Shown piece after piece: positions 10,188-36,325 of a stretch of DNA of 43,560 nt. Positions within the stretch are counted from its first letter, which is position 1; each line of letters opens with the position of its first letter. The position numbers were made by a program, and so were the translations under genes. This DNA is from an uncultured Eubacteriales bacterium (GTDB taxonomy: Bacteria; Bacillota; Clostridia; Peptostreptococcales; Anaerovoracaceae). The stretch lies in the NCBI GenBank assembly GCA_902788795.1, contig CADALS010000009.1, forward strand, positions 1 through 43,560, given 5' to 3'. Under the pieces are notes generated by a model. The model had not been told where the DNA came from. It ran no database searches and was given only the letters and a program-made list of their open reading frames with translations.

Positions 10188-10263
10188 TGGTCGGAGTGCC
10201 GGGATTTGAACCCGGGGCCTCTTGGTCCCGAACCAAGCACGCTACCATCTGCGCTACACCCCG
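10188..10263 (-). tRNA. tRNA-Pro (anticodon CGG), CCA encoded
   Basis: The reverse complement folds as a cloverleaf: CGGGGTG-TA-GCGC-AGATGGTA-GCGT-G-CTTGG-TTCGGGA-CCAAG-AGGCC-CCGGG-TTCAAAT-CCCGG-CACTCCG-A-CCA. It has C1:G72 and A73, as in bacterial tRNA-Pro. Confidence 0.95.
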
Positions 10264-10320
10264 ATACCAGCTGCCTATCCGGCGGACCGGACAAGGCTAT
10301 ATAATATGCTCCGAAAAATC
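10222..10320. repeat. attL: left copy of a perfect 99-bp direct repeat (tRNA-Pro positions 1-42 plus 57 bp upstream of the tRNA)
   Basis: It is identical base for base to 22511-22609. The two track ORFs that start MVPNQARYHLRYTPIPAAYPADRTRLYNMLRKI arise from this repeat. Confidence 0.95.
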
Positions 10321-10350
10321 AATCAAAGAAAGGAATTAAGAGTACTTACT

Positions 10351-11313
10351 ATGAGACAACTTTCAATTAACAATCAAACAAGAAACAAAGAACTCCTTAT
10401 CAAGAATGAAACAACTTTTAATGATCTTTTTAGTCTGTTTTTGACTGCCAAGAAAGCCATTGGAGTACAAGACAAAACACTTGATACATATCGCTTTCAT
10501 TTTAGTGCAATCAGACATTATTTGAACACTGAGAAAGCAATATCGGAACTATCAAAACAAGATTTTGACTTAATGATAATTAAGATGCGTAATTCCAATC
10601 TGGCTCCTAGAAGCATAAAAAGTTATTTAACTACACTGAGAGCATACTTAAACTGGTGCAAATCCGAAGGATACTGTGACATTACTATTGGTAAGTTCAA
10701 ATGTCCTGAAACATATAAAGATCCATATACTGACGAAGAATTGAAAGTGCTTCTTCAAAAACCATGTGTCAATACTTGTTCATTTTCTGAATACAGGAAT
10801 TGGGTAATGATCAATTTCCTTTTAGATACTGGTTGCCGTTCTGCCACATTGCGATTAATCCAGATTCAAGACTTGGATTTAGATCGAGGTATTTGTTACT
10901 ACAGACACACGAAGAATGCACGAGTTCAGTCAATTCCCTTGAGTTCCAAAATGATAAATATATTGAAAGAGTATCTATTGTTCAGAAAAGGATCACTAGA
11001 AGATGTTTTGTTCTGCTCTATTTATGGTCAACCCCTTAACGAAACAGCATTAAGAAAAGCTATATATAGCTATAACAAATCTAGAGGAGTAAATAAAACT
11101 AGTGTCCATTTGTTTCGACATACTTTTGCAAAAAAGTTTCTACTAGACTGTAATGGAAGCGCGCTCATACTACAACAACTATTGGGTCATACCACACTTG
11201 ATATGACAAAGCATTACTGTAACCTATACAGTTCTGATATAATCCATTCTTATGATCGACTCTCTCCGCTTTCGCAAATCCAGAAAAAGAATGAGAGAAT
11301 AAAAATGCGTTAA
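10351..11313 (+). CDS. int: Tyrosine-type site-specific integrase (XerC/D-like, phage integrase family)
   Basis: I chose the start at the ATG at 10351 (MRQLSINNQ). The track ORF start at 10222 is a TTG inside the tRNA repeat. Catalytic-region motifs are LLDTGCRSATL, VHLFRHTFAKKFL and LLGHTTLDMTKHY. Confidence 0.9.
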   Translation: MRQLSINNQTRNKELLIKNETTFNDLFSLFLTAKKAIGVQDKTLDTYRFHFSAIRHYLNTEKAISELSKQDFDLMIIKMRNSNLAPRSIKSYLTTLRAYLNWCKSEGYCDITIGKFKCPETYKDPYTDEELKVLLQKPCVNTCSFSEYRNWVMINFLLDTGCRSATLRLIQIQDLDLDRGICYYRHTKNARVQSIPLSSKMINILKEYLLFRKGSLEDVLFCSIYGQPLNETALRKAIYSYNKSRGVNKTSVHLFRHTFAKKFLLDCNGSALILQQLLGHTTLDMTKHYCNLYSSDIIHSYDRLSPLSQIQKKNERIKMR

Positions 11314-11385: not shown

Positions 11386-11440
11386 GGATCTTATGCTTCG
11401 CCGCTTTCGCAAATCCAGAAAAAGGCGAAAGAATAAAAAT
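11386..11440 (+). pseudogene. Relic of a second integrase 3' end
   Basis: Nucleotides 11401-11424 are identical to 11266-11289, and 11430-11440 are identical to 11296-11306. The in-frame translation GSYASPLSQIQKKAKE* parallels the integrase C-terminus HSYDRLSPLSQIQKKNERIKMR*. A stop lies immediately upstream. Confidence 0.7.
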
Positions 11441-12571: not shown

Positions 12572-13699
12572 TTAATAGTTATTAAGAATAGTTTTTAAAT
12601 GAATCTGATACTCTTCTCGAACTTGTTTAGGCGCGACAATTTCAACATTTGATCCAAATCCGCAAAGCCAACCGAAAAACTGTGGACTAACCTCTACATC
12701 ACAATTAACTTGAAAGTGTTCATCATCTATTCGTGAATATAAGGCGGTTTTCGTTCCGAAGCGATCAAGCACAGTATCTAATAGTGAGTTGTCGAACCGC
12801 AAACTAACACTTGTTTTCTCCCCTCCATACATAGAAAACACTCGTTGCGTATAGTTTTTCACATCAAGTGCTTTTATGGCATCCAAACCACCTCTTGGTT
12901 GGCCAGTGAGTTTAATGTTCTTCATGCGGTCAACTCTATATGTCCGTACATCTCGTTTTCCATCATCATATGCAAGTAAATAGTAGTTCCCATCACTGAT
13001 TATGAGATAATATGGACTGACTGTATACTGCTTGCTCCGGACGACTGGTTTTTCAACATTTGTGATTTCATATCTGGCATATTTAAAACTAATCTTCTCT
13101 GGAATGTGTTTTTTCCTGTTTTGTTCTGTTGCCATTGCATCACGAATCAAATCAATGTTTGTCAACACGGTTTTATTTAGCGTCTTGACTCGATCTACAA
13201 CGACTGCATCCGTTTTTATTTTACGTGCCTGATATTCACTTACATTTTCCAGAAGTATATTAGCCAGTCTTTCTGCAGAATCTGATGGAATAAACTTTGT
13301 TGAATATACACATTCAGTAATTAACCGGATATCATTTAACTGGAATTCTCTCGCTTCTGGGTTTATATAGAATCCCTTTTTCGCCCTCTTGATCATTAGT
13401 TTTTTGTTATCATCTGCTTCGGCAATTATCTTTTCGGCCTCATCAATAGTGCAGTTTTCCTTCATCATCACATAGACTTTATTTAGATCCTCTATATCTT
13501 TATAAATAGATCTGCGTTCTGCATCAATTCCAAAAGCATCTAAATCCGCAGCAATATCATCGGCGGCAATTGGATTGTATTCATCAGATCGTTTCTGTAG
13601 AATTTGCAGAACAAGATAAAGCTTTGCACGCTGATTTGATTTTCTTCCACTATTCGGTTTGTTATTGACCTGGCGCGATTCGTTTTTTTCGAATTCCAT
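12572..13699 (-). CDS. HTH-WYL-WCX transcriptional regulator (BrxR/CapW/PafBC-like architecture)
   Basis: The N-terminal wHTH is KLYLVLQILQKRSDEYNPIAADDIAADLDAFGIDAERRSIYKDIEDL. The WYL core is YTVSPYYLIISDGNYYLLAYDDGKRDVRTYRVDRMKNIKL. The C-terminal extension is FFGWLCGFGSNVEIVAPKQVREEY. Confidence 0.85.
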   Translation of the reverse strand: MEFEKNESRQVNNKPNSGRKSNQRAKLYLVLQILQKRSDEYNPIAADDIAADLDAFGIDAERRSIYKDIEDLNKVYVMMKENCTIDEAEKIIAEADDNKKLMIKRAKKGFYINPEAREFQLNDIRLITECVYSTKFIPSDSAERLANILLENVSEYQARKIKTDAVVVDRVKTLNKTVLTNIDLIRDAMATEQNRKKHIPEKISFKYARYEITNVEKPVVRSKQYTVSPYYLIISDGNYYLLAYDDGKRDVRTYRVDRMKNIKLTGQPRGGLDAIKALDVKNYTQRVFSMYGGEKTSVSLRFDNSLLDTVLDRFGTKTALYSRIDDEHFQVNCDVEVSPQFFGWLCGFGSNVEIVAPKQVREEYQIHLKTILNNY

Positions 13700-13724
13700 A
13701 TAAGACTCCGGGAAAGAATTCAGT

Positions 13725-13762
13725 TATGTATGAATGTGCACTTTCAGTTACCATTATACATA
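13725..13762. promoter_or_regulatory. Imperfect inverted repeat in the divergent WYL/phosphoesterase intergenic region (candidate operator)
   Basis: TATGTATGAATG (13725-13736) and CATTATACATA (13752-13762) are inverted apart from one extra G. A GTGCAC palindrome lies between them. Confidence 0.4.
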
Positions 13763-13846
13763 GATATAGTGCAAAAAGCCAAAGGATCTTCGTTTACAAA
13801 ACTGGCTGTTCAGTGATATATTTTATATTAATAGATTTACGCATAC

Positions 13847-15961
13847 TTGCTTGATGAAATAGGGAAAACAAATCAAACCAAAGAAATGTTAATTAAAACA
13901 TTGGAATTTGACAAGGATCCCAACGGTATCATGAAGTATTTTGCTGTTCAATTACTAACGCCTGAAATATGTTTAATGGGGATTAAGCAAAGCTGGGCTA
14001 ACCTTCAGTACATTCCAGTCAAATACAGAACTGAAGAAATATGCAATATAGCACTTGAAGAATCTATTAACGCTTTCAGATACGTGCCTGATCAATACAA
14101 AACAAAAGATCTATGCTATAAGGCGGTTAGCGCGAATTGTGACCTATTTAGATATGTCCCAAAAGAGAAAAAAACTGAGGAGTTATATCGCTTATCACTC
14201 AGGAGTGTAGCACCATGTCTTGAGAATAATCAGAAACTGTTGTCATATGATAAACCAAAAGAACAAAACAGCAACATACTATTGAAGAGCGCTGTAAAAA
14301 CAGTCAGTTTACCAAGCCTGGCGGAATTGGCGATAACTGTCAAGGAGCAGTCACAGAATGGCATTAACCAGTATACTTTATTACCGCATGATGAACCCTT
14401 ATATGTTTTCGATTTACATCTGGAGCACCAACTTAATATCATAGGAAAGACTGTAGATCAAATTGAAAAACAAATACGTAATATGCTAGATGAAACCCAC
14501 ATTCAACAATTATTTTATATGCATGATCCATTAATAGTTGGCGGGGACGTTGCTAGTTCAATTAGTTTAGAGTCCTTATTCTATAAGACATTACGTGATT
14601 ATTGGAGAGGTCCCATTATTGGCATATTGGGAAATCATGAGTTATGGGATTGCAAAACAGAAGACAATAGTAAAAAAAACATAGAACAAATAATAGCCGA
14701 ATATAGAGAAGTGTTCAGTCAGAATGGATGCATTTTATTACATAACGATTTGTTAGTCTGCAAAGGTATAAATAATTGGTCTCTTATTAGCGAAGAGACG
14801 ATCTTGAGAATTAGTGATGAAGAACTCAAGGGATTTATAGAGAAATCCTATTATGCCATTCTTGGGGGCCTTGGTTTTTCTGGATATGATCAAAAGTACA
14901 ATTCGGAATTGGGTTTATATGCAGACTCAATTACTACAATAGCCGATGACAAGAAGAATAGTGACAGATTTCATGCTGTCTATGATAAAGTTATGCGTTG
15001 TTCTGGGAAAAAACAGATAGTAGTAGTTACACATATGCCATTGCATAGTATAGGCATATCACAACTCGCTGCAAATTGTATATATCTTAATGGACATACA
15101 CATCAAAATTCCATTCAGAAGCATAAAAACGGCGCGATTATTCTATCTGATAACCAGATTGGATATGAACCATGTAAATGGCGCTTTAAGTCCTTTTCTA
15201 TTCTACATCAGCAGTATAACCCATTTGAGGATCTTCCTAGTGGTATCTTTAAAGTAGATAGAAGAGACTATCTTGCTGTTAATGCTGCATACGGGATAAG
15301 CTTGGAAAGTTTTAAGAAGAAAGGGGATGTAATACTAGTAAAGAACGCAGGAGTTTCAATGTTCTTTTTAATGACGACTAATGTCAAAGGTAAGGTTAAA
15401 ACATACATTCTGGAAGGTGCTAGAATCCATGAAACAGATAAGGATTTAGAATACTATTATAACAATATCCCTCGATACACTGAAATCGTAAAAAATGCAT
15501 ATGCGCCATACTATGAGTCATTATGTAAAATATCGGATGAGGTAAAATCATTCGGTGGCAGCGGGCGCATACATGGGTGCATTGTTGATATAGATTTCTA
15601 TAATCATATTTATCTGAACCCAATAGATGGTAAGGTGTCATATTATTATGCATTAGATATGTCAAGTAGAACAGTAATGCCAAATATGGAACGACTATTA
15701 AAAGGTTCTAATTTGCTCAAATCCTATAAAAAACAGCAGAAGAAAGGCAATCTAGTAACGCTTAATTCGTCATCCATTAATCAAGCTATAGTACCAAAGG
15801 AAATGTATGGGACTGAAATGTATAGACCTTCAAATTCACTGCTCAAATTACAATACCTTGTTGAAGACAACATAATTAGAGTTTGGAAAGATGAGGTTCT
15901 AACTGAAACGCGCAAGCGGATTTCAGATGGTACAAAGCAGGGAAAACTAAGAAAAAAATAG
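13847..15961 (+). CDS. DUF4116-repeat / calcineurin-like metallophosphoesterase fusion protein with an unassigned ~280-aa C-terminal domain
   Basis: The repeats are LQYIPVKYRTEEICNIAL, FRYVPDQYKTKDLCYKAV and FRYVPKEKKTEELYRLSL. The metallophosphoesterase motifs appear in canonical order: VFDLH, VGGDVA, LGNHE, VVTHMP and NGHTHQ. The start is uncertain: either the TTG at 13847 or the first ATG at 13886. Neither has a strong RBS. Confidence 0.8.
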   Translation: MLDEIGKTNQTKEMLIKTLEFDKDPNGIMKYFAVQLLTPEICLMGIKQSWANLQYIPVKYRTEEICNIALEESINAFRYVPDQYKTKDLCYKAVSANCDLFRYVPKEKKTEELYRLSLRSVAPCLENNQKLLSYDKPKEQNSNILLKSAVKTVSLPSLAELAITVKEQSQNGINQYTLLPHDEPLYVFDLHLEHQLNIIGKTVDQIEKQIRNMLDETHIQQLFYMHDPLIVGGDVASSISLESLFYKTLRDYWRGPIIGILGNHELWDCKTEDNSKKNIEQIIAEYREVFSQNGCILLHNDLLVCKGINNWSLISEETILRISDEELKGFIEKSYYAILGGLGFSGYDQKYNSELGLYADSITTIADDKKNSDRFHAVYDKVMRCSGKKQIVVVTHMPLHSIGISQLAANCIYLNGHTHQNSIQKHKNGAIILSDNQIGYEPCKWRFKSFSILHQQYNPFEDLPSGIFKVDRRDYLAVNAAYGISLESFKKKGDVILVKNAGVSMFFLMTTNVKGKVKTYILEGARIHETDKDLEYYYNNIPRYTEIVKNAYAPYYESLCKISDEVKSFGGSGRIHGCIVDIDFYNHIYLNPIDGKVSYYYALDMSSRTVMPNMERLLKGSNLLKSYKKQQKKGNLVTLNSSSINQAIVPKEMYGTEMYRPSNSLLKLQYLVEDNIIRVWKDEVLTETRKRISDGTKQGKLRKK

Positions 15962-16024: not shown

Positions 16025-16606
16025 CTAAAGGGAGCTGTTATCGGCCCCTTTTCTATTACGAATAAGCGTGCTTTTGCTAATTCCTGTAATTGCCTCTACC
16101 TGTTTGTATGTCATGCCTTGTAATAGTAAATCCAGTGCATGTGCAATTTGTTGAGGCTTATATTTCTTTGGTCTTCCTTCTCGGAAGTTGGGATCCTGCC
16201 TGGCTACAGTCTTCCCTTCCTGAGTTCGCTCTACGATCATATCTCTCTCAAACTGTGCAAACGCTAATAATACATTGCGCAGCAGTGTGCTCATGCTGTC
16301 ATTAGAAAGAATTCCAAGATTTAAAACATTGACTGTTATTCCTCTATCTATAAGCTTAGTGATCAAATCGCTAGCTTGCGAAACTGAACGCGCAAACCTG
16401 TCAAGCTTTGTCACAATCAAGGTGTCTCCATCTTCTATTTTTTCTAGCAATCTCTGGAGGTTTGGTCTATCCATCTTAGTGCCAGTAAAAGAGTCCTTAT
16501 AGATCTTTTGCGCGCCGTTCTGTATTAGCGAATTAACTTGTGCTTCTAAACTGTTACCATCTTTAGCTTGTCCCCTTGTTGATACTCTAGCATATCCATA
16601 AACCAT
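16025..16606 (-). CDS. Small serine recombinase (resolvase/invertase family)
   Basis: It has [13 protein letters not shown] (catalytic Ser), [12 protein letters not shown] and [16 protein letters not shown], plus a C-terminal HTH ([20 protein letters not shown]). Confidence 0.9.
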
Positions 16607-16746: not shown

Positions 16747-17394
16747 TTATCTGACTTGTTGTAGTTGCTCTCCGCAGTCCATGCACATGACCCTTACTTC
16801 TTTTGTGGCTCTTACGCTCATTCCGCAGCAGGGACACATATATTTTCTTGTGCTAGAAGGCTTTGTGATTTGAATGCCATTTGCTCCTGAATGAGTTCCA
16901 GTCCCTCCAACTCTTAAGCCGCTAGACTCATTTCTGAAGATTAGAATATCTGTTAGTCCATTGTCTATTACAAAGTCTAGCAGGCCTTCACCTGGCGTTG
17001 TTATTGTCCATCCATATTTTTCATCGTGCTCAACTACTAGGTCTCTGCTTTCTGCTGCTTCTTTAAAGCGTCTGTTGTGGTATGTTCCACCTCTGCTGCA
17101 GTCTTGAATTCCCATTTCGTAGTTGTAGTAATGCACCATTTCATGTAGCAGCGTTGCGGTAATGCTCTCTATAGGCATATTTAACGTTCCGGCGCCTATG
17201 TTGATCTCATGCGTTCCACCAAGTTTTGATATCCATGTATCATTTCTCAGCGAGAAGTGGCCGTAGGCTTTTGGCGTTGACTGAATTGTTATTGTTGGCC
17301 TTGAAAGTGCACCTTCAAAGTATTCATTGTTTAGCAAGTCAAAGATTTTGTTGAGGTATCCTGCGACTCTGTTATAACTTGTCATTTCTTTCAT
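16747..17394 (-). CDS. SprT-like zinc metalloprotease domain protein with a C-terminal zinc ribbon
   Basis: It has the N-terminal LNNEYFEGAL...TIQSTPKAYGHFS, the HExxH site LLHEMVHYYN followed by TYHNRRFKEAAE, and a C-terminal CPCCG...x14...CMDCG. Confidence 0.75.
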   Translation of the reverse strand: MKEMTSYNRVAGYLNKIFDLLNNEYFEGALSRPTITIQSTPKAYGHFSLRNDTWISKLGGTHEINIGAGTLNMPIESITATLLHEMVHYYNYEMGIQDCSRGGTYHNRRFKEAAESRDLVVEHDEKYGWTITTPGEGLLDFVIDNGLTDILIFRNESSGLRVGGTGTHSGANGIQITKPSSTRKYMCPCCGMSVRATKEVRVMCMDCGEQLQQVR

Positions 17395-19339: not shown

Positions 19340-19628
19340 AGTCGAAATCGTATTCATAGGCATCAATATAATCCTCCACATTAGGTAATGCATCCATTAT
19401 TTCTTTAAGTCTGGGTGCTAGTGAGTAATAGTCCACATCATGCATCAATGCATCTATCAGATCCTCTTCACTAATACCTGCTTGATAAAGAAGGCGCTTA
19501 ATAGCATCGGCGCAATCACATTCATCACACAAAGCTGGACCATAGTCCTCTAGCATTGCTATAAGTGCTTTTTTTACACTGTCATCCTTACACAGTGCCG
19601 TTATAGTGGGGTTAGTATCATAATTCAT
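19332..19628 (-). CDS. Highly acidic small protein (98 aa)
   Basis: I prefer the ATG at 19628 (MNYDTNP), which has GGAGGAG 8 nt upstream. By hand count it has 24 Asp/Glu against 7 Lys/Arg, and it ends DYIDAYEYDFDYE. Confidence 0.6.
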   Translation of the reverse strand: MNYDTNPTITALCKDDSVKKALIAMLEDYGPALCDECDCADAIKRLLYQAGISEEDLIDALMHDVDYYSLAPRLKEIMDALPNVEDYIDAYEYDFDYE

Positions 19629-20457
19629 AATCTTCTCCTCCATTTGTGTTTATTTTCATCACGCTAGTTACTGCATCATGTGCAGTTAAGTGTTCTATTG
19701 TTATTAATCTTACAATCTCTTTGTACTGACCGTCATCATACCTATATGCAAAATTAAGAATATCTTCTGCATCGTGAATTCTTTGTACAATAAGCTCTTC
19801 TGAAACTGGCGCACCACTTATTTGATTGTCTATTAGTCGTTTACCTGCCCTAAAAATATGTGGAGTATTTAAATCGTCTTTCAATGTATTATTACTTGTA
19901 TTATTACTTGTGTTATTTGTATTATTTCTCTCTGGTTCTACAGAAGTTTTTTTCGTGAAATCCGAATCTGGATTCTTGATTTCAGAATTCGATTTCGGTT
20001 TTTCAGTTTTCTTATTTTCAGAATTCTCCCAATCATTAATTGGCGGTTTTTCAGAAATCTTGCCACTTAACATGTCTTGAACTGTTTGTTCATCAAGTGT
20101 TTTTTCTGCTGCGCCTTGGTTTTCAAAATTCATAGACCTAAACTGTTCAGGTAATTCATGAAAGATATAATAGTTGCTACCGTCTCTAACAGGGACAAGA
20201 TATTTATTGTTAATAAGGGATTCGACAGCCTTGTAATATGCATCCTTCTTGATTCCCCATGCTTCACATGCCTTTTGAGACAAATCAAAACCATATTTGT
20301 TTTGATTCTTTGTCATATAACACCACAGTTTAAAATCGTTATTTCGAAGAACCACCATTGCCGTTTGTAAGGCTTTCAGATTAATAATTGAGTAAAAGTT
20401 CTGCTTGTTACTTGTTTCTTTTAGTATCGTGATATGTAATTGATTTGGTACACTCAC
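19618..20457 (-). CDS. Putative winged-helix DNA-binding protein, possibly a replication or initiator-type factor
   Basis: The N-terminal ~100 aa (FKLWCYMTKNQNKYGFDLSQKACEAWGIKKDAYYKAVESLINNKYLV) look like wHTH. A central N/T-rich low-complexity tract (NNTNNTSNNTSNNT) follows. The functional call is weak. Confidence 0.4.
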   Translation of the reverse strand: MSVPNQLHITILKETSNKQNFYSIINLKALQTAMVVLRNNDFKLWCYMTKNQNKYGFDLSQKACEAWGIKKDAYYKAVESLINNKYLVPVRDGSNYYIFHELPEQFRSMNFENQGAAEKTLDEQTVQDMLSGKISEKPPINDWENSENKKTEKPKSNSEIKNPDSDFTKKTSVEPERNNTNNTSNNTSNNTLKDDLNTPHIFRAGKRLIDNQISGAPVSEELIVQRIHDAEDILNFAYRYDDGQYKEIVRLITIEHLTAHDAVTSVMKINTNGGEDYEL

Positions 20458-22510: not shown

Positions 22511-22609
22511 TTGGTCCCGAACCAAGCACGCTACCATCTGCGCTACACCCCGATACCAGCTGCCTATCCGGCGGACCGGACAAGGCTATATAATATGCTC
22601 CGAAAAATC
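22511..22609. repeat. attR: right copy of the 99-bp direct repeat (truncated 5' half of tRNA-Pro plus its native upstream DNA)
   Basis: It is identical to 10222-10320. It lacks tRNA positions 43-76, so it is not a functional tRNA. Confidence 0.95.
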
Positions 22610-29859: not shown

Positions 29860-30113
29860 TTGAACTGTAAGATTATAACATTTTGTGTGTCTAAAATCAA
29901 CGATTTGAGCCATTTTTTTAAGCCTAATGCAGAAATATGCCACAAATATTTTTTATCGCGTTATTTGGTCGATTTTTTTATAAAAACACAACATATATTG
30001 CATGTTGAAATTGTGGAATACTTTATCCACAAGCTGTGGAAAACTTGTGGATTCCTTAATTTTTTCGCTTTTATGCTTGGGATATTCCTGTGGAAAACTT
30101 TTTTTGGTATAAT
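29860..30113. other. oriC part 1: an AT-rich tract followed by a DnaA-box cluster and the dnaA promoter
   Basis: The boxes are TGTGGAATA (30012-30020), TTATCCACA (30023-30031, perfect), TGTGGAAAA (30035-30043), TGTGGATTC (30046-30054) and TGTGGAAAA (30089-30097). An extended -10, TGGTATAAT, ends at 30113. The 29860-30000 segment is strongly AT-rich. Confidence 0.8.
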
Positions 30114-30246
30114 ATCCGCAGACACAATATATATCAAATCAAAAGCTCGCGTTTTTTACTTTTCTGACGTGAGCTTCCCATATTTTAGACTAGATTTGAT
30201 ATAATATAATAGACTAAAAGAATACTACCAAAAGGAATCATCATAG

Positions 30247-31581
30247 ATGACTAAAACGGAACTAAAAGCATGCTGGGACAGTGTGCTTGATCTTATGCGC
30301 AAAAAAGTGGATCCGCTGGCTGTAGATACCTTCTTCAAGCCTCTTTCTCCCATAAAGATAAGCGAAAGGGAACAGAAGCTCTTTTTGCTTGCTCCGAAGG
30401 AATCCAACTACGCTTTCTACCAGAGCAGAGTAAACAACCACATGAACAGCCTCTCCGAATGCATGAACTCTGTATTCGGTAAAGTTTACACTATAGAAGT
30501 CACGGAAAAAGAAAGTCTCCAGGACACAGAAGATCCTTTCTCCGCAGAAGACAGCCTCAACCCTAAGTATACCTTCGAAAGCTTCGTAGACGGCCCCAAT
30601 AACCGCCTTGCATACGCAGCTTCTGTTTCTGTTGCCGAGGGTTATTCCAGGCAGTACAATCCTCTGTTCCTTTACGGCGGCAGCGGCCTTGGCAAGACCC
30701 ATCTTATGCATGCAATAGGCCACTATGTAAGCCAGAAGAGGGCAAGGAAAAAGTATATCTACGTTTCCGCTGAAACTTTTACAACAGAGCTTATAGAGGC
30801 AATAAGAAACAAGACCCAGCAGGCATTCAAGGATAAGTACCGCAAGGTAGATTATCTGCTTTTCGATGATGTCCAGTTCATTGCAGGAAACAAAGCTGTA
30901 GAAGAGGAGCTTTTCAATACTTTCGAGGCTCTTTACAATTCCAACAAGCAGCTCGTTTTCACATCGGACCGTCCTCCAAAGGAACTTAACGGTATTCCAG
31001 ACAGGCTCATAAGCCGCTTCAACTGGGGACTTCCTGTAGATATCCAGCCTCCTGAATACGAAACAAGGATGGCTATACTTAAAAATAAAGCTATTCTTGA
31101 AGGCCTGGATATTAGCGATCCCAACCTTATAGCAGTAATGGATGTCATAGCCCAGGGCGTAAACAGCAATATCAGAGAGCTGGAAGGTTCCTTTACCAGA
31201 GTTCTTGCTCATGCAGCTCTTACCGGAGAAAAGATTAGCCTTTCCCTTGCAAAGAGGGTGCTTACAGATGTATTTAAGACCAAGGAATCCGATATTTCTC
31301 CTTCGGATATTAAGAAGGCTGTAGCAAATTACTACAAGATAAAGGTCTCAGAGATGGAATCATCAAAGAGGTCCAGAAATATAGCTTATCCAAGGCAGAT
31401 AGCTATATACATGATAAGAGAACTTTGTCCAAACTATTCTTTCCCAAAGCTCGGAGAGATATTCGGAGGAAGGGATCATACAACTATTCTGCACAGCTAC
31501 GAAAAGATCTGCGACGAACTTAAATATTCTCCGGACCTTCAGAATATAATAAACAACATAAAAGCTAATCTTGAGCTTTAA
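30247..31581 (+). CDS. dnaA: Chromosomal replication initiator protein DnaA
   Basis: It has the AAA+ motif GGSGLGKTHLMHAIGHY, DVQFIAGNKAVEEELFNTF, and the domain IV sequence RPRQIAIYMIRELCPNYSFPKLGEIFGGRDHTTILHSYEKI. Confidence 0.97.
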   Translation: MTKTELKACWDSVLDLMRKKVDPLAVDTFFKPLSPIKISEREQKLFLLAPKESNYAFYQSRVNNHMNSLSECMNSVFGKVYTIEVTEKESLQDTEDPFSAEDSLNPKYTFESFVDGPNNRLAYAASVSVAEGYSRQYNPLFLYGGSGLGKTHLMHAIGHYVSQKRARKKYIYVSAETFTTELIEAIRNKTQQAFKDKYRKVDYLLFDDVQFIAGNKAVEEELFNTFEALYNSNKQLVFTSDRPPKELNGIPDRLISRFNWGLPVDIQPPEYETRMAILKNKAILEGLDISDPNLIAVMDVIAQGVNSNIRELEGSFTRVLAHAALTGEKISLSLAKRVLTDVFKTKESDISPSDIKKAVANYYKIKVSEMESSKRSRNIAYPRQIAIYMIRELCPNYSFPKLGEIFGGRDHTTILHSYEKICDELKYSPDLQNIINNIKANLEL

Positions 31582-31582
31582 A

Positions 31583-31623
31583 TAATCCACAGGCTGTGGA
31601 AAAGATGTTTTTTGTTTTCCACA
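31583..31623. other. oriC part 2: a DnaA-box cluster between dnaA and dnaN
   Basis: The boxes are TAATCCACA (31583-31591), TGTGGAAAA (31595-31603) and TTTTCCACA (31615-31623). Confidence 0.75.
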
Positions 31624-31736
31624 GGTTTTTAAAGCTTAAAACAGTTGAAAGATCAAGCTTTCCGGAGCTTATCAACTTTTCAACAGACCAACAACATCAC
31701 CAACAGCAAATAAAATTATAAAGAAAGGCGCCTGCA

Positions 31737-32843
31737 ATGAAATTCACTTGTACTCAGATAGCTTTAGCCAAGGCTATAAACACTGTTTCAAGAGCTGTTT
31801 CTGTAAGAACAACTATTCCTATCCTTAAAGGAATTCTTATGACAGTAAAAGACGGAAGGCTCACTATGTCTGCTTCCGATCTTGATCTCAGCATAGAAAC
31901 CAGCATAGATGTTCAGGCAAGCGGAGAGGGCAGCACAGTTGTTTCCGCAAAGCTTTTCGGAGAAATAATAAGAAAACTTCCTAACTCTCTTGTAACAATA
32001 GAGCAGGAAGAAGGAAAGCTAAACATCAAGTGCATAGGTTCCGATTTCAGCATAGTTTCTCTTCCTGCAGAGGAATTCCCTGTTATCGGAGGCGTGGATT
32101 CCAAGAATTTCATAGATATAAAGAAGGAAGACCTTTCCGATCTTATTAAAAAGACTGTCTTTGCAGCAAGCATAGACGAAAAGAAGGGAATTCTTACAGG
32201 CTGCCTTATAAACTTCAAGCCGGAAAATATAGAAATGGTTGCTCTTGACGGCTTCCGCATGGCTGTTGCAAACAAGGATGCAAGCACAGGAACAGACAGA
32301 AGGATAATAGTTCCTGCCAGGATACTTTCCGAGATCAACAAGATAATAGCAGACGACGAGGGTTCCGATTCTGTTTCCCTTGTAATAGAAGACAAGAAGC
32401 TGGAGATACTCACAGAAGACACAAGAGTTGTTGCAAGGCTTCTTGAAGGCGAATTCATAAAGTACACAGACATTATTCCTCAGAACTGGAAAACAAGAGT
32501 AGTTACAGGCAGAGAAGACGTGCTTTCCAGCATAGAAAGAGCATCTCTTCTTGCAAAAGAAGGAAAGAACAACCTTGTTAAGCTCAGCATTTCGGAAGGA
32601 AGCATAGATATAAGCTCCAGATCCGAAGAAGGTAATGTTAACGAACACGTTGGCGCAGACGTTCAGGGTCCGGACCTTGTTATAGGATTCAACTCCAAGT
32701 ACCTGCTTGATGTTCTTAAGTCTATTTCTGACGAAGAGATAGCATTTGAGCTTGGAACAAGTGTAAGCTCCTGCCTTATAAAGCCTGTAGACGGAAAAGA
32801 TTACACCTACCTGGTGCTTCCTGTTAGGATCACAGTAGCTTAA
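31737..32843 (+). CDS. dnaN: DNA polymerase III beta sliding clamp
   Basis: It is 368 aa, opens MKFTCTQIALAKAINTVSRAV and ends ...LVLPVRI, in the conserved position after dnaA. Confidence 0.95.
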   Translation: MKFTCTQIALAKAINTVSRAVSVRTTIPILKGILMTVKDGRLTMSASDLDLSIETSIDVQASGEGSTVVSAKLFGEIIRKLPNSLVTIEQEEGKLNIKCIGSDFSIVSLPAEEFPVIGGVDSKNFIDIKKEDLSDLIKKTVFAASIDEKKGILTGCLINFKPENIEMVALDGFRMAVANKDASTGTDRRIIVPARILSEINKIIADDEGSDSVSLVIEDKKLEILTEDTRVVARLLEGEFIKYTDIIPQNWKTRVVTGREDVLSSIERASLLAKEGKNNLVKLSISEGSIDISSRSEEGNVNEHVGADVQGPDLVIGFNSKYLLDVLKSISDEEIAFELGTSVSSCLIKPVDGKDYTYLVLPVRITVA

Positions 32844-33926
32844 ATGTATTTCAAGCAGATAGAACTTAAAAACTTCAGGAATTATAAAGATCAGAAAGTA
32901 GAGTTCGATCCAAAGCTCAACCTTATCTTAGGAGATAACGCTCAGGGTAAGACCAATCTTCTTGAAAGCCTCTTTATAATGGGTCTTGGAAAGTCCTTTA
33001 AGACCAACAACGACAAAGAAATGATAGCCTTTGGAGAAAATATAGCAAGGGCTAAGTGCGTTGTTGGAGAAAAAGGGGAGCCGGATACCGAAATAGAGAT
33101 AGCCTACAGCACAGAAGGCAAGCTAATAAAGGTAAACGGTGTAAAACTTTTAAGAAACGTGGACCTTTTGGAGAATATTTACGTTGTTATATTTTCTCCT
33201 GAAGATCTTAAGATAGTAAAAGACGGTCCTGATCTTAGAAGAAGGTTCCTGGACAGAGAGCTTTGCCAGATAAAACCTGTATATTACAGCGATCTTGGAA
33301 ACTATAAAAAGGTCCTTAAGCAGAGAAATACACTTTTAAGAGATCAGAATGACGATATCTACCTCTTTGATGTTTTCGATGAAGCTCTTTCTGATTACGG
33401 CGTAAGGATAGTAGAGGAAAGAAAAAAGTTCATCGAAAGGCTGCATGGGATCTGCAAACAGATACACAGCGATATATCGAGCGGAAAAGAAGAGCTGGAG
33501 ATCAGGTATGAGACTGCAACTGAAGATAAGTTACAGTTCAAAACCAAGCTCAGAGAAAGCTTTAAGAACGATATTTTAAGAGGATATACCGGTTTTGGCC
33601 CTCATAAGGACTTCCTTTCCATAAAAGTTAACGGAAAGGATATAAGGGTCTACGGTTCCCAGGGCCAGCAGAGGACTGCAGCGCTTTCTTTAAAGCTTGC
33701 GGAAATAGAGCTCATAAAGCAGGAAACAGGGCACAACGCAGTGCTTTTGCTTGACGATGTCCTTTCGGAACTGGATACCAACAGGCAAAGATACCTTATA
33801 GAAACTATGAAGGACGTACAGATATTCGTATCTGCCACCGGAATAGAGGAAGAACTGCAAAAAATGCTTCCTAAAGGCAATGTATATATTGTTGACAACG
33901 GAAAAGTCAACTTATATAATAGATAA
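32844..33926 (+). CDS. recF: DNA replication and repair protein RecF
   Basis: The ATG directly follows the dnaN stop. It has the Walker A motif GDNAQGKTNLLES, the signature GSQGQQRTAALSLKLAE and the Walker B motif VLLLDDVLSELD. Confidence 0.95.
   Translation: MYFKQIELKNFRNYKDQKVEFDPKLNLILGDNAQGKTNLLESLFIMGLGKSFKTNNDKEMIAFGENIARAKCVVGEKGEPDTEIEIAYSTEGKLIKVNGVKLLRNVDLLENIYVVIFSPEDLKIVKDGPDLRRRFLDRELCQIKPVYYSDLGNYKKVLKQRNTLLRDQNDDIYLFDVFDEALSDYGVRIVEERKKFIERLHGICKQIHSDISSGKEELEIRYETATEDKLQFKTKLRESFKNDILRGYTGFGPHKDFLSIKVNGKDIRVYGSQGQQRTAALSLKLAEIELIKQETGHNAVLLLDDVLSELDTNRQRYLIETMKDVQIFVSATGIEEELQKMLPKGNVYIVDNGKVNLYNR
33892..33920 (+). promoter_or_regulatory. Consensus sigma-A-type promoter inside the recF 3' end, facing rpmH
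   Basis: The elements are TTGACA (33892-33897), an exact 17-nt spacer, and TATAAT (33915-33920). It lies 59 nt upstream of the rpmH ATG. Confidence 0.65.
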
Positions 33927-33978
33927 GCTACTCTATTTTAAGATGGAGCAGTATTTTTAAGAGAAAGGAGGAACAACC

Positions 33979-34122
33979 ATGGCAAGCGGAAAGATGACAT
34001 ACCAGCCCAAGAAGGCTCAGAGGTCCAAGGAGCACGGCTTCCGTAAGAGAATGTCCACAAAGAACGGCAGAAACGTTCTCAAGAGAAGAAGACTCAGAGG
34101 CAGAAAGCGTATCAGCGCATAA
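33979..34122 (+). CDS. rpmH: 50S ribosomal protein L34
   Basis: This ORF is not in the track because it is under 60 aa. An AAGGAGG RBS precedes it. The translation is [47 protein letters not shown]. Its stop overlaps the rnpA start (TAATG). Confidence 0.9.
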
Positions 34123-34460
34123 TGAAGGATCTGCTAACTCTAAGGAACAAGGAAGATTTTACACGTCTCCATAAGCACGGAAGATCTGTAGGAAGCAGAT
34201 TTGTTGTTATGGTAAGTTTAAAGAACGATCTTCCCTACAACAGAAGGGCCTTTTTAGCAAGTAAAAAGGTCGGAAACAGCGTACAACGACACAGAGCTGT
34301 ACGTCTGATGAGAGAATCCTTCAGGCAGATAGAAAAAGACAACCAGATGCCTGTCGGGTACGATTTTTTATTTATAGCCAGAAGTACGATCATTGATTCG
34401 AAATGCGCGGATGTGAAAAAATCTATTGAAGCCGCATTAAAACGAGCGAGTCTTACTTAG
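34122..34460 (+). CDS. rnpA: Ribonuclease P protein component
   Basis: It sits directly after rpmH and is a basic 112-aa protein ([24 protein letters not shown]). Confidence 0.9.
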
Positions 34461-34465
34461 AAACC

Positions 34466-34675
34466 ATGAAATTTATACTAATCTTCCTTATAAATGTATA
34501 TCGTGGTTACATTTCGCCCAGGTTTCCTGGAGTGTGCAGGTTTACACCTACATGTTCTCAGTATGCCCTGGAAGCTATACAAAAGTACGGCGCGTTAAAA
34601 GGAACTTGGCTAGCAATCAAACGTATATTAAGGTGCCACCCCGGTAATCCGGGAGGATACGATCCGGTACCTTGA
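34466..34675 (+). CDS. yidD: Membrane protein insertion efficiency factor YidD
   Basis: It contains [44 protein letters not shown]. Confidence 0.9.
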
Positions 34676-34687
34676 TCTGGAGGAAAA

Positions 34688-35413
34688 ATGCAAGCGATCA
34701 CAGGATTTTTTGCAACAATAATCGGATATCCTATCCAGTGGGTGTATTCACTGGTCAATAATTATGGTATCACGATCATAATCATTACTTTAATAGTAAG
34801 ATTATGCCTTCTTCCGCTTTACGCTAAGCAGATAAAGAGCACTGCACAGCAAGCAGGACTCCAGGCTCAGATAAAGGATATACAGACCAGATACGCAAAC
34901 AACAGGGAAAAAATGAACGAAGAGATGAGCAATCTCTACGCTAAGTCAGGTATCAGCCCCATGAGCGGATGCCTTCCGCTTATCATCCAGCTCCCGATAA
35001 TCTACGGACTGTTTGCCGTACTCAGGAACCCGCTCACCTACATGACATCCAACAACATGATAGCAGCGGTCCACGAGTCTTTCCTTTGGATAACAGACCT
35101 TTCTCAGCCTGATTCCTGGATACTTCCAATACTTGCAGGTGTTACAACATACCTTACCTCTGCAACAACAATGTCTGCGCAGAGCGCTGCAGGAGCAGCT
35201 AACGGTATGATGAACAGCATGAAATATTTCATGCCTGTAATGATTTTCCTCATGGGAAGATCTTTCCCATCCGGACTTACACTTTATTGGACTATAGGTA
35301 ACTGCTTCATGATAGTTCAGACCTGGCTCTTCAACAGGAAGAACAAGAAGAAAAAGGCTCAGGAAGAAGCAGAGGCGGAAGTTCTCAGAAGAATGAAGAA
35401 AGACAACAAGTAA
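34688..35413 (+). CDS. yidC: YidC/Oxa1-family membrane protein insertase (short Gram-positive type)
   Basis: It has multiple TM helices, the sequences LLPLYAKQIKST and MSGCLPLIIQLPI, a basic C-terminal tail, and the conserved position. Confidence 0.9.
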   Translation: MQAITGFFATIIGYPIQWVYSLVNNYGITIIIITLIVRLCLLPLYAKQIKSTAQQAGLQAQIKDIQTRYANNREKMNEEMSNLYAKSGISPMSGCLPLIIQLPIIYGLFAVLRNPLTYMTSNNMIAAVHESFLWITDLSQPDSWILPILAGVTTYLTSATTMSAQSAAGAANGMMNSMKYFMPVMIFLMGRSFPSGLTLYWTIGNCFMIVQTWLFNRKNKKKKAQEEAEAEVLRRMKKDNK

Positions 35414-35431
35414 TCATCTTTGGAGGCATAG

Positions 35432-36325
35432 ATGAAGTATTCGGAAAAGTGGGGCGACAGCATCGAATCAGCGGTGCAGCTTGCTCTTCAGGACCTTAAG
35501 CTTACCAGAGATCAAGTTACGGTTACTGTTTTGGAGCAGCCTTCCAAAGGTTTCTTTGGAATTGGATCCAAGCTCGCAAAAGTAAGAGTAGAAGAGATCG
35601 TTAAAGAAGAGCCTAAGGCCGAAAAAGTATTTACAGAAAACAAAGCTGTCAAAGAAAAAGCTGAACCTAAGAAGGCAGAAGCTAAGCCTGTAAAGGAAGA
35701 AAAGAAGGAAAAGCCGGAAGAAAAGCCTGCAAAAGCAGAGGAAAAGCCGGAAAGAAATCAGGCTGACAGAAAAAAGCGCAATAATAACAGAAAAAAGAGA
35801 AACGACAAAGTAAGGGAGTTCAAGATCGAGGGCGAGGCAGAGCAGATCTCCACACGTCCTGCAGACCTGGTAGATGCAACAGAGCATCCTTCCAAGGAAT
35901 TCCTTGAAAAGCTCATGAAGGAAATGGGCCTTGACGTAGAAGTAAAGGTTGCCACAAACGCAGAAAGCGTTTACGTAGACCTGGACGGCAAGGACACAGG
36001 AACAGTTATAGGAAAGCGCGGACAGACTCTGGATGCAGTCCAGTACCTTACAAGCCTGGTGGTAAATAAGGGAGAGGATGAATATATCAGAGTAATAGTG
36101 GACGCAGAAGGTTACAGGGCAAAGAGAGAGGCTACTCTCGAAAAGCTTGCTTACAGACTTGCAGAAAAGTCCGTTAAGACAGGCCGCAGCGTAAGGCTGG
36201 AGCCCATGAACCCCTACGAGAGAAAGGTTATCCACACCACTCTGCAGACAGTTCCTTCCGTTACTACAAGGAGCGAGGGCAATGAGCCCTACAGAAGGGT
36301 CGTAATCGAGCCCGCAAAGAAATAA
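35432..36325 (+). CDS. jag: Jag/KhpB RNA-binding protein (Jag_N, KH, R3H) with a K/E-rich linker
   Basis: The N-terminal Jag domain and the C-terminal R3H (LEPMNPYERKVIHTTLQ) are present. It sits in the conserved position after yidC. Confidence 0.9.
   Translation: MKYSEKWGDSIESAVQLALQDLKLTRDQVTVTVLEQPSKGFFGIGSKLAKVRVEEIVKEEPKAEKVFTENKAVKEKAEPKKAEAKPVKEEKKEKPEEKPAKAEEKPERNQADRKKRNNNRKKRNDKVREFKIEGEAEQISTRPADLVDATEHPSKEFLEKLMKEMGLDVEVKVATNAESVYVDLDGKDTGTVIGKRGQTLDAVQYLTSLVVNKGEDEYIRVIVDAEGYRAKREATLEKLAYRLAEKSVKTGRSVRLEPMNPYERKVIHTTLQTVPSVTTRSEGNEPYRRVVIEPAKK

Follow-up and report, generated by a model that had tools for sequence, protein, structure and literature searches.

Related systems and the locus studied

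In the PUA-Cal-HAD or Metis system a PUA-like sensor is fused to a Calcineurin-CE metallophosphoesterase, together with a HAD phosphatase (PMC12871103; bioRxiv 10.1101/2025.11.05.686725). In this system the calcineurin-like domain has been proven to act as a defence effector, and Calcineurin-CE depletes nucleotides (PMC12871103). A phage metallophosphoesterase, Gp48 of Mycobacteriophage A10ZJ24, was reported to be a counter-defence factor that damages DNA (PMC12287305). Co-localisation of WYL regulators with a range of defence systems was reported (PMC9122601), as was the sensing of single-stranded DNA (ssDNA) by CapW (PMC11662680). Here we analysed a stretch of 43,560 nucleotides from an uncultured Eubacteriales bacterium (contig CADALS010000009.1; the window), in which an integrative element (the island) carries a WYL gene and, divergent from it, a gene that combines DUF4116 repeats, a calcineurin-like metallophosphoesterase (MPE) domain and a C-terminal domain (CTD) of unrecognised fold. 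On the sequence evidence we give about even weight to the reading that this MPE-CTD protein would be an undescribed single-gene defence effector, directed against phages or mobile elements and controlled by the WYL protein.

The protein resembles PUA-Cal-HAD in that a catalytic calcineurin-like MPE is fused to a non-catalytic module, which elsewhere joins alternative effectors, and in that both are carried in variable genomic regions. However, its N-terminus consists of DUF4116 helical repeats with no PUA-like domain, and the modules accompanying the MPE are these repeats and the CTD. No HAD partner was found among the island proteins or the 25 most frequent Pfam families in 119 immediate neighbours of the homologous genes, and a family profile run against PDB sequences found no PUA-Cal-type protein. 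Gp48 is likewise a stand-alone MPE-fold protein active in phage-host conflict, but it is a phage-encoded counter-defence factor, whereas MPE-CTD is absent from sequenced phages and has the extra CTD and repeats.

Like BrxR and CapW, the island WYL protein has a WYL domain followed by WCX and is encoded divergently beside a cargo gene, and a homolog in a sister element flanks restriction-modification (R-M) genes in the same way (PMC9122601, PMC9122589, PMC9122588, PMC11662680). It differs in that it travels with the backbone of a mobile element and not with one defence system, in that its similarity to solved WYL proteins is marginal, and in that no winged helix-turn-helix was detected in it (Pfam, E <= 0.1). 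Hotspots for defence cargo on small integrative elements and phage satellites (P2/P4 hotspots, cargo of phage-inducible chromosomal islands) are reportedly the subject of Rousset et al. 2022 and Fillol-Salom et al. 2022. The island shares with these a conserved backbone (integrase, regulator, recombinase, and genes of replication or regulation) with one slot of unrelated cargo that related elements exchange, here R-M in one element and MPE-CTD in the other. In contrast to them, it belongs to elements of 9.5-12.3 kb and 34-35% GC, located at tRNA-Pro in a 58%-GC host, with no recognised capsid, packaging or relaxase genes and no DNA kinship to 50,697 phages.

The cargo gene and the MPE-CTD family

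The cargo gene, its domains and the divergent WYL gene are located as follows. Residues of the 704-aa protein are counted from the TTG at 13847.

13847-15961, plus strand: 704-codon open reading frame (ORF) with DUF4116 repeats, MPE and a CTD of unrecognised fold, the cargo gene (Pfam, alignment, AlphaFold2 (AF2) model)
13931-14227, plus strand: N-terminal helical-hairpin repeats, residues ~29-127 (Pfam, regular-expression scan, AF2 helices with a predicted local distance difference test score (pLDDT) >90)
14393-15151, plus strand: calcineurin-like MPE domain, residues ~183-435 (Pfam, invariant ligands, Foldseek)
15209-15931, plus strand: C-terminal alpha/beta domain (CTD), residues ~455-695 (invariant columns, AF2)
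12572-13699, minus strand: WYL-WCX regulator-like protein of 375 aa, divergent from the cargo gene (Pfam WYL and WCX)

An initial annotation had described the two divergent ORFs inside the island. Both were found at the positions and on the strands it gave, and both peptides that it quoted from the WYL protein are present. Its description of the 704-aa protein was also borne out. Pfam DUF4116 (PF13475) matched with E 9.2e-8 and 32 bits (cut-off 24.9), and the regular-expression scan placed the three claimed units, each of 24 residues, at residues 53, 77 and 101. Pfam Metallophos (PF00149) matched residues 189-420 with E 1.5e-5 and 25.9 bits (cut-off 21.5). All the calcineurin-like motifs occur in the claimed order, and the metal-binding positions D189-L-H191, G233-D234, G262-N263-H264-E265, H396 and G416-H417-T-H419 were invariant in an alignment of 102 homologs. 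As the Pfam scores of both proteins all lie above the curated cut-offs, the domain matches are not chance.

An AF2 model of the protein, built with the 102-homolog alignment, was confident, with a mean pLDDT of 86. It showed helical hairpins at residues 1-130, a disordered linker at 127-180 (pLDDT <50), the alpha/beta fold of the MPE at ~183-435 and a separate alpha/beta domain at ~455-695. With Foldseek the MPE domain matched purple acid phosphatase 5uq6 and UshA 1ush with a probability of 1.0. Its structural neighbours were generic (purple acid phosphatase, UshA, acid sphingomyelinase, Mre11), with Mre11 6x1z in ninth rank (E 6.3e-3) after phosphatases and nucleotidases, and a PDB search with the family profile gave 6unc as the sole match (E 1.3e-3). 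Assignment to a specific MPE subfamily was rejected, as the fold matches were generic only and NCBIfam TIGR03729 scored far under its cut-off. A gene for a Rad50/SbcC-type ATPase, the partner of Mre11/SbcD nucleases, was found neither in the island nor among the conserved neighbours of 82 loci with homologs. The initial annotation had held that a characterised housekeeping phosphoesterase would speak against its proposal; Foldseek returned generic members of the fold, and no characterised relative of the domain was found.

Homology with the three nearest relatives (P0002-P0004, 56-59% identity) sets in near nt 13853, at residues 34-48 of those proteins, and in-frame stops lie directly upstream at 13832-13837. 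Some 35-47 residues at the N-terminus of the relatives thus have no counterpart in the island ORF. Its candidate start codons are TTG 13847, ATG 13886 and ATG 13931, the last being the database call (676 aa), and there is no Shine-Dalgarno-like sequence before the TTG. The N-terminal codons were probably lost at a recombination junction, and 5' clipping at the WYL-proximal junction would fit an exchange of cargo by recombination there. The missing residues and the missing Shine-Dalgarno-like sequence would also fit an inactive remnant, a cargo gene that lost its 5' end when the cargo was exchanged and whose proper expression has ceased. We find this quite improbable, given that the rest of the 704-codon frame is open with all family-invariant residues kept, that 25 nt upstream of it there is a promoter-like site whose -10 is extended, that the internal ATGs at 13886 and 13931 could be used as starts, and that many family members naturally have a short N-terminal region or none.

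More than 700 homologs were returned, mostly of 850-1000 aa and 33-37% identical to the query over >90% of its length. Those that have a name go under 'DUF4116 domain-containing protein'. Searching 1.84 billion representatives with the CTD alone gave 988 clusters (50% identity) at E <= 1e-3, of which 890 also passed E <= 1e-10. Among 127 newly returned top CTD matches, 78 had the repeats-MPE-CTD architecture and 43 were MPE-CTD proteins with no detectable repeats. Judged by these architectures, MPE-CTD is the core of the family and the DUF4116 repeats are optional. Protein length ranges from 485 to 1096 aa, since the number of repeats varies. The role of sensor that had been offered for the repeats is weakened by these data, many family members being without repeats while the CTD is always present.

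The family is spread patchily over Bacillota, Coriobacteriia and others, and a genome may have as many as three copies; three MPE-CTD copies were seen on separate contigs of uncultured Clostridiales UMGS785 (L020, L028, L033). No homologs were found in 50,697 phage genomes, and only nine of 2.9 million IMG/VR contigs had one, three of them with a serine recombinase within ~4 kb. The full-length protein was not found on plasmids, where only a domain X-CTD protein (Limosilactobacillus reuteri; see below) and unrelated DUF4116 proteins were found.

When scanned with PADLOC-DB v2.0.0, the 704-aa protein matched 0 families at E <= 0.1, a negative of the kind that the initial annotation had taken to support novelty, and the lack of a model indicates that earlier guilt-by-association screens missed the family. 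The literature contained no description of the MPE-CTD family. None of the four papers mentioning DUF4116 addressed its function, and none joined metallophosphoesterase, WYL and anti-phage. MPE-CTD is a large family with no characterised relative for either domain, and the statement that no described system has this composition holds against PADLOC-DB v2 and the literature.

The CTD and its second protein family

The CTD comprises ~240 aa and was modelled by AF2 with a pLDDT of 89. Its signature HGCI-D-D--NH-Y-NP-DG contains H576, D581 and H587, all invariant in the 102-homolog alignment, and the nearly invariant C578. The initial annotation had recognised no motif in this part of the protein, and our searches agree. 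The last ~270 residues had no significant Pfam match, with YfjS_YafY below threshold only, and nothing was found among PDB sequences with either the single protein or the family profile. Foldseek gave a best E of 0.3 against the PDB, with template modelling (TM) scores <= 0.16 and a top-ranked PUR-alpha match that was not significant, and a best E of 0.014 (TM <= 0.21) against the predicted viral structures of BFVD. The H..NH..N pattern led us to consider an HNH/His-Me nuclease, which was dropped as the model has strands where the beta-beta-alpha finger needs a helix and Foldseek gave no match.

A second protein family was found to share the CTD. A 569-aa hypothetical protein on L. reuteri plasmids (for example L083:4203-5912 on plasmid pAN417A) aligned to the CTD with an hhalign probability of 99.9 and E 1e-31. 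The family (proteins P0121-P0227, at least 120 clusters) has a different N-terminal domain of ~260 residues, here called domain X, with the invariant residues D172, D181, K183, Q197 and Y201. From this D..DxK..QxxxY pattern alone, domain X is read as a putative PD-(D/E)xK nuclease of the RecB/Cas4-like type. Domain X had no Pfam or PDB sequence match that would confirm this. It is found by itself as well, and in fusions with DUF4391 or an RNase_T exonuclease domain. One domain X-CTD member has type III R-M genes on one side and two Mrr-type restriction genes on the other. The swapping of catalytic heads on a constant module is a trait of conflict systems, as discussed for PUA-fused effectors (PMC12871103), and the two different heads found on the CTD would fit this trait.

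The integrative element and its cargo slot

The element is bounded as follows.

10222-10320, unstranded: attL, left copy of a 99-nt direct repeat (repeat search); GC falls here from ~58% to ~35%
22511-22609, unstranded: attR, right copy of the 99-nt direct repeat (repeat search)
10188-10263, minus strand: tRNA-Pro(CGG) (ARAGORN), its 5' 42 nt inside the left att repeat
10306-11313, plus strand: tyrosine integrase of the element (Pfam Phage_integrase E 3.3e-24; phrog_1 integrase E 2e-45)
16025-16606, minus strand: small serine recombinase (resolvase/invertase), a backbone gene at the right flank of the cargo slot (Pfam Resolvase E 1e-35)

The two copies of the 99-nt repeat are perfect (100% identity) and spaced by 12,289 bp. 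The repeat consists of nt 1-42 of tRNA-Pro(CGG) and the 57 nt upstream of the tRNA gene. These perfect repeats at tRNA-Pro define an integrative element of 12,289 bp, with ~35% GC as compared to ~58% in the host, and the drop in GC spans about 10-23 kb of the window. The element integrates into the 5' half of tRNA-Pro(CGG), whereas tRNA genes are more usually entered at their 3' end. For the integrase, whose ORF opens at 10222, the first ATG was taken as the start.

Sister elements were found by searching metagenomes with the island integrase. One of them, L113 (Ga0247611_10012572), is a 9,593-bp contig of 34% GC whose 127-bp terminal overlap shows it to be a circular unit of 9,466 bp. It has the gene order of the island: integrase, WYL on the opposite strand, cargo, resolvase, o92, a helix-turn-helix (HTH) gene and homologs of o140, o148 and o159. 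Identity to the island proteins is 49% for the integrase, 30% for WYL, 56% for the resolvase and 52% for o92. Between WYL and resolvase, L113 encodes a 214-aa protein of the MjaI restriction-endonuclease family (PF09568) and a 350-aa DNA methyltransferase with an SPPY motif (E 1e-21 to the modification methylase 2zie). The endonuclease gene is divergent from WYL, as is the MPE gene in the island. In a further contig, L114, WYL again follows the integrase, and the contig ends there.

Comparing the two gene orders, we conclude that the MPE gene is exchangeable cargo in the slot between WYL and resolvase, a slot held by a type II R-M system in L113. As sister elements keep WYL beside the integrase whatever the cargo, the same comparison makes the WYL gene a part of the element backbone that flanks the swappable slot. 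With R-M in the same slot of the sister element, the context points to a defence role for the MPE gene.

The WYL gene and the divergent intergenic region

The 375-aa protein matched Pfam WYL with E 7.4e-13 and 48.7 bits (cut-off 21.8), Pfam WCX with E 2.3e-8 and 34.7 bits (cut-off 23.9) and the WYL model of PADLOC with E 2.5e-29. It had been described initially as HTH-WYL-WCX. The WYL and WCX parts stood, and the HTH, though plausible, was not detected, no Pfam HTH family being matched at E <= 0.1. The WYL homolog in locus L009 matched HTH_11 alone, weakly (E 0.011).

13700-13846 (147 bp), unstranded: divergent intergenic region, a candidate operator/promoter suggested by pattern matches

This region contains back-to-back promoter-like sites, at 13793-13822 on the plus strand and 13782-13753 on the minus strand, of which the former has the extended -10 and lies 25 nt upstream of the 704-codon ORF. 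A 16-bp palindrome, TGAATGTGCACTTTCA, is located at 13731-13746, and three copies of TTCAGT[TG]A at 13719, 13743 and 13809.

The initial annotation had taken WYL and MPE to be a dedicated two-gene system, and the divergent arrangement with its shared 147-bp candidate control region would suit an obligate, co-evolving pair. We surveyed 100 loci with MPE-CTD genes: 80 from different species, two metagenomic ones with the nearest relatives, and 18 further ones. All ORFs were searched by jackhmmer from the island WYL and with a profile of four WYL sequences, and a WYL gene was found near the MPE gene in two of the 100 (L002 and L009). In L002, the locus of P0002, it lies directly upstream and co-directional, overlapping by 4 bp the start of the MPE gene, whose product is 57% identical to the island protein; in L009 it lies 3.3 kb upstream. 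These two WYL proteins are 30% and 26% identical to that of the island, while the MPE proteins are 31-57% identical. In L113 the WYL homolog flanks R-M genes instead. The neighbourhood survey thus largely refutes the two-gene system, which we now consider very improbable. In L002, which holds the closest homolog, a 470-aa NYN-domain protein (predicted RNase; L002:4096-5508) follows WYL and MPE on the same strand after a 32-bp gap, and the three genes may form an operon.

Neighbourhoods of the homologs

All-versus-all clustering of the genes within four positions in 82 loci gave no conserved neighbour gene. The largest cluster, of serine recombinases, was found in 10 of the 82. The 119 immediate neighbours included six XRE-type HTH genes and about 13 serine and tyrosine recombinases, as well as plain housekeeping genes. 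Isolated defence genes also occurred in immediate neighbourhood, namely type IIG R-M, a type IV restriction endonuclease, PDC-S06, PDC-M33C, MzaE and DrmMI. In 15 of the 79 species loci examined for this, a site-specific recombinase was located 3 kb or less away. At the chromosomal site of P0034 (L151, L152, L153) the MPE gene was seen both with and without a small element just upstream, which carries HTH_17, a Mob_Pre relaxase and a large serine recombinase. Some of the recombinase proximity may therefore reflect insertion beside the gene and not carriage of it.

Single copies were found in diverse contexts. One adjoins a NERD gene, between ribosomal-protein and YchF genes. Another is cargo of an integrative and mobilizable element (IME) of ~11 kb, with D5-type primase, MobC, ParA and a large serine recombinase, located at smpB or in a prophage. 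A third lies beside two AbiE modules and an insertion sequence (IS), and a fourth, with DUF1156/DUF499-HEPN genes as neighbours, is enclosed by an IS and a serine recombinase. The initial annotation had asked whether homologs are associated with WYL genes, defence islands or mobile elements. The association with WYL did not hold, and that with mobile elements and defence genes was seen in some loci.

Location on an integrative element here, and as IME cargo beside a serine recombinase elsewhere, could mean that the gene serves the element, as an anti-defence or inter-element competition factor. It could then be, for example, a phosphodiesterase destroying immune signalling nucleotides of the host, or a nuclease acting on host or rival DNA, and both the recombinases found within 3 kb and the reported counter-defence activity of the phage MPE Gp48 (PMC12287305) would agree with this. 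Against this, the family is absent from the 50,697 phage genomes and very rare in IMG/VR, and lone copies persist between housekeeping genes with no element around them. These two findings also disfavour the counter-defence alternative named in the initial annotation. The slot in L113 holds R-M, which is defence cargo, and a domain X-CTD member lies inside an R-M/Mrr island. Taken together, we judge a gene in the service of the element unlikely.

A little less likely still, in our view, is a role outside genetic conflict, the family being an accessory phosphoesterase of metabolism or signalling (turnover of nucleotides or phosphoesters) that reached islands by ordinary horizontal transfer. This is favoured by the generic nature of the Foldseek matches (phosphatases and nucleotidases, namely purple acid phosphatase, UshA and sphingomyelinase-type enzymes), by the several loci among housekeeping genes and by the lack of a PADLOC model. 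However, the 82 loci have no conserved operon or pathway context, and the spread is patchy with up to three copies in a genome. Members also differ greatly in how many N-terminal repeats they have, the CTD occurs with more than one enzymatic domain, and recombinases, R-M, AbiE and NERD genes recur nearby.

Proposed function

What the initial annotation observed was confirmed, and its interpretation was kept in part: the mobile location and the defence-like context remain, and the dedicated pair does not. MPE-CTD is best read as an accessory gene that acts by itself in genetic conflict, most probably as a defence effector. The reading as a single-gene defence effector draws on the slot shared with R-M and on the exchange of catalytic heads on the CTD. 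Several findings weigh against it. Recognised defence genes make up a raw share of only ~5% of the immediate neighbours, and several copies are solitary among core or housekeeping genes, as is also seen in the domain X-CTD family. The 704-aa protein has no PADLOC-DB model. The cargo-slot argument is based on one complete sister element, and the island copy of the MPE gene could be impaired by its N-terminal loss. The WYL protein is distant from structurally characterised WYL regulators (E 0.02-0.1). Promoter-like sites were no more frequent over the scanned region than in shuffled sequence, and those in the intergenic region are accordingly leads only.

If MPE-CTD is a single-gene defence effector, the WYL protein would repress the divergent promoter region, and a signal from DNA damage or ssDNA would release this repression, as for BrxR/CapW-type regulators. 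Regulation or sensing would most likely fall to the constant CTD, which may have a His/Cys/Asp/His site for a metal or ligand. The phosphoesterase would act as the effector, hydrolysing nucleic acid or nucleotide pools so that replication of the invader stops, and the DUF4116 repeats would be a variable protein-binding adaptor. As to the substrate, the nuclease-like domain X leans slightly towards nucleic acid and the structural neighbours of the MPE towards nucleotides or phosphoesters.

A wider reading, in which we place somewhat less than even confidence, joins MPE-CTD and domain X-CTD into a new and widespread single-gene immune family (~1000 clusters at 50% identity; Bacillota, Coriobacteriia and others). 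The CTD would be an unseen sensor or regulatory fold that gates interchangeable effectors cleaving phosphodiesters, and in one family of small tRNA-Pro elements the gene would be plugged into a cargo slot under the control of a backbone WYL protein.

If the role is defence, the family would be a single-gene effector that is common, associated with gut and rumen, and overlooked by present annotation tools. The CTD would then be a new domain with an invariant His/Cys/Asp/His signature and at least two different catalytic partners, and the ligand or trigger of such a module would reveal how cells sense infection. The compact element family, with WYL beside a swappable slot, is a natural system for asking whether WYL proteins are portable defence switches. 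Should the role not be defensive, the analysis has nonetheless cleanly defined a large family that so far carries only the label 'DUF4116 domain-containing protein'.

Other features of the element and the window

The other genes of the element encode a ribbon-helix-helix protein, a Cro/CI-type HTH protein and several function-unassigned proteins, some with PHROG matches. They also include a 159-aa protein that found no placement in the databases. Pfam and PHROG scans recognised no capsid, packaging, structural phage or relaxase genes among the element proteins. A phage origin was rejected: the backbone had no DNA match in the 50,697 phage genomes, and the ORF at 19618-20457 had no match in phage genomes. 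On the whole island PADLOC-DB v2.0.0 matched only the generic WYL and Cas3c-region models, both on the WYL protein.

A backbone protein encoded at 16747-17394 has a SprT-like metalloprotease motif (HEMVH) and C-terminal cysteine pairs, and a 216-aa homolog of it occurs in a relative of the element, L115 (phmmer E 2e-96). A 27-nt direct repeat, 96% identical, is located around the 3' end of the integrase gene at 11263-11289 and 11398-11424. Outside the island, a second stretch of lower GC at 30000-36000 (40-43%, as compared to ~55% around it) contains several plus-strand ORFs of 240-440 aa and may be another acquired region.

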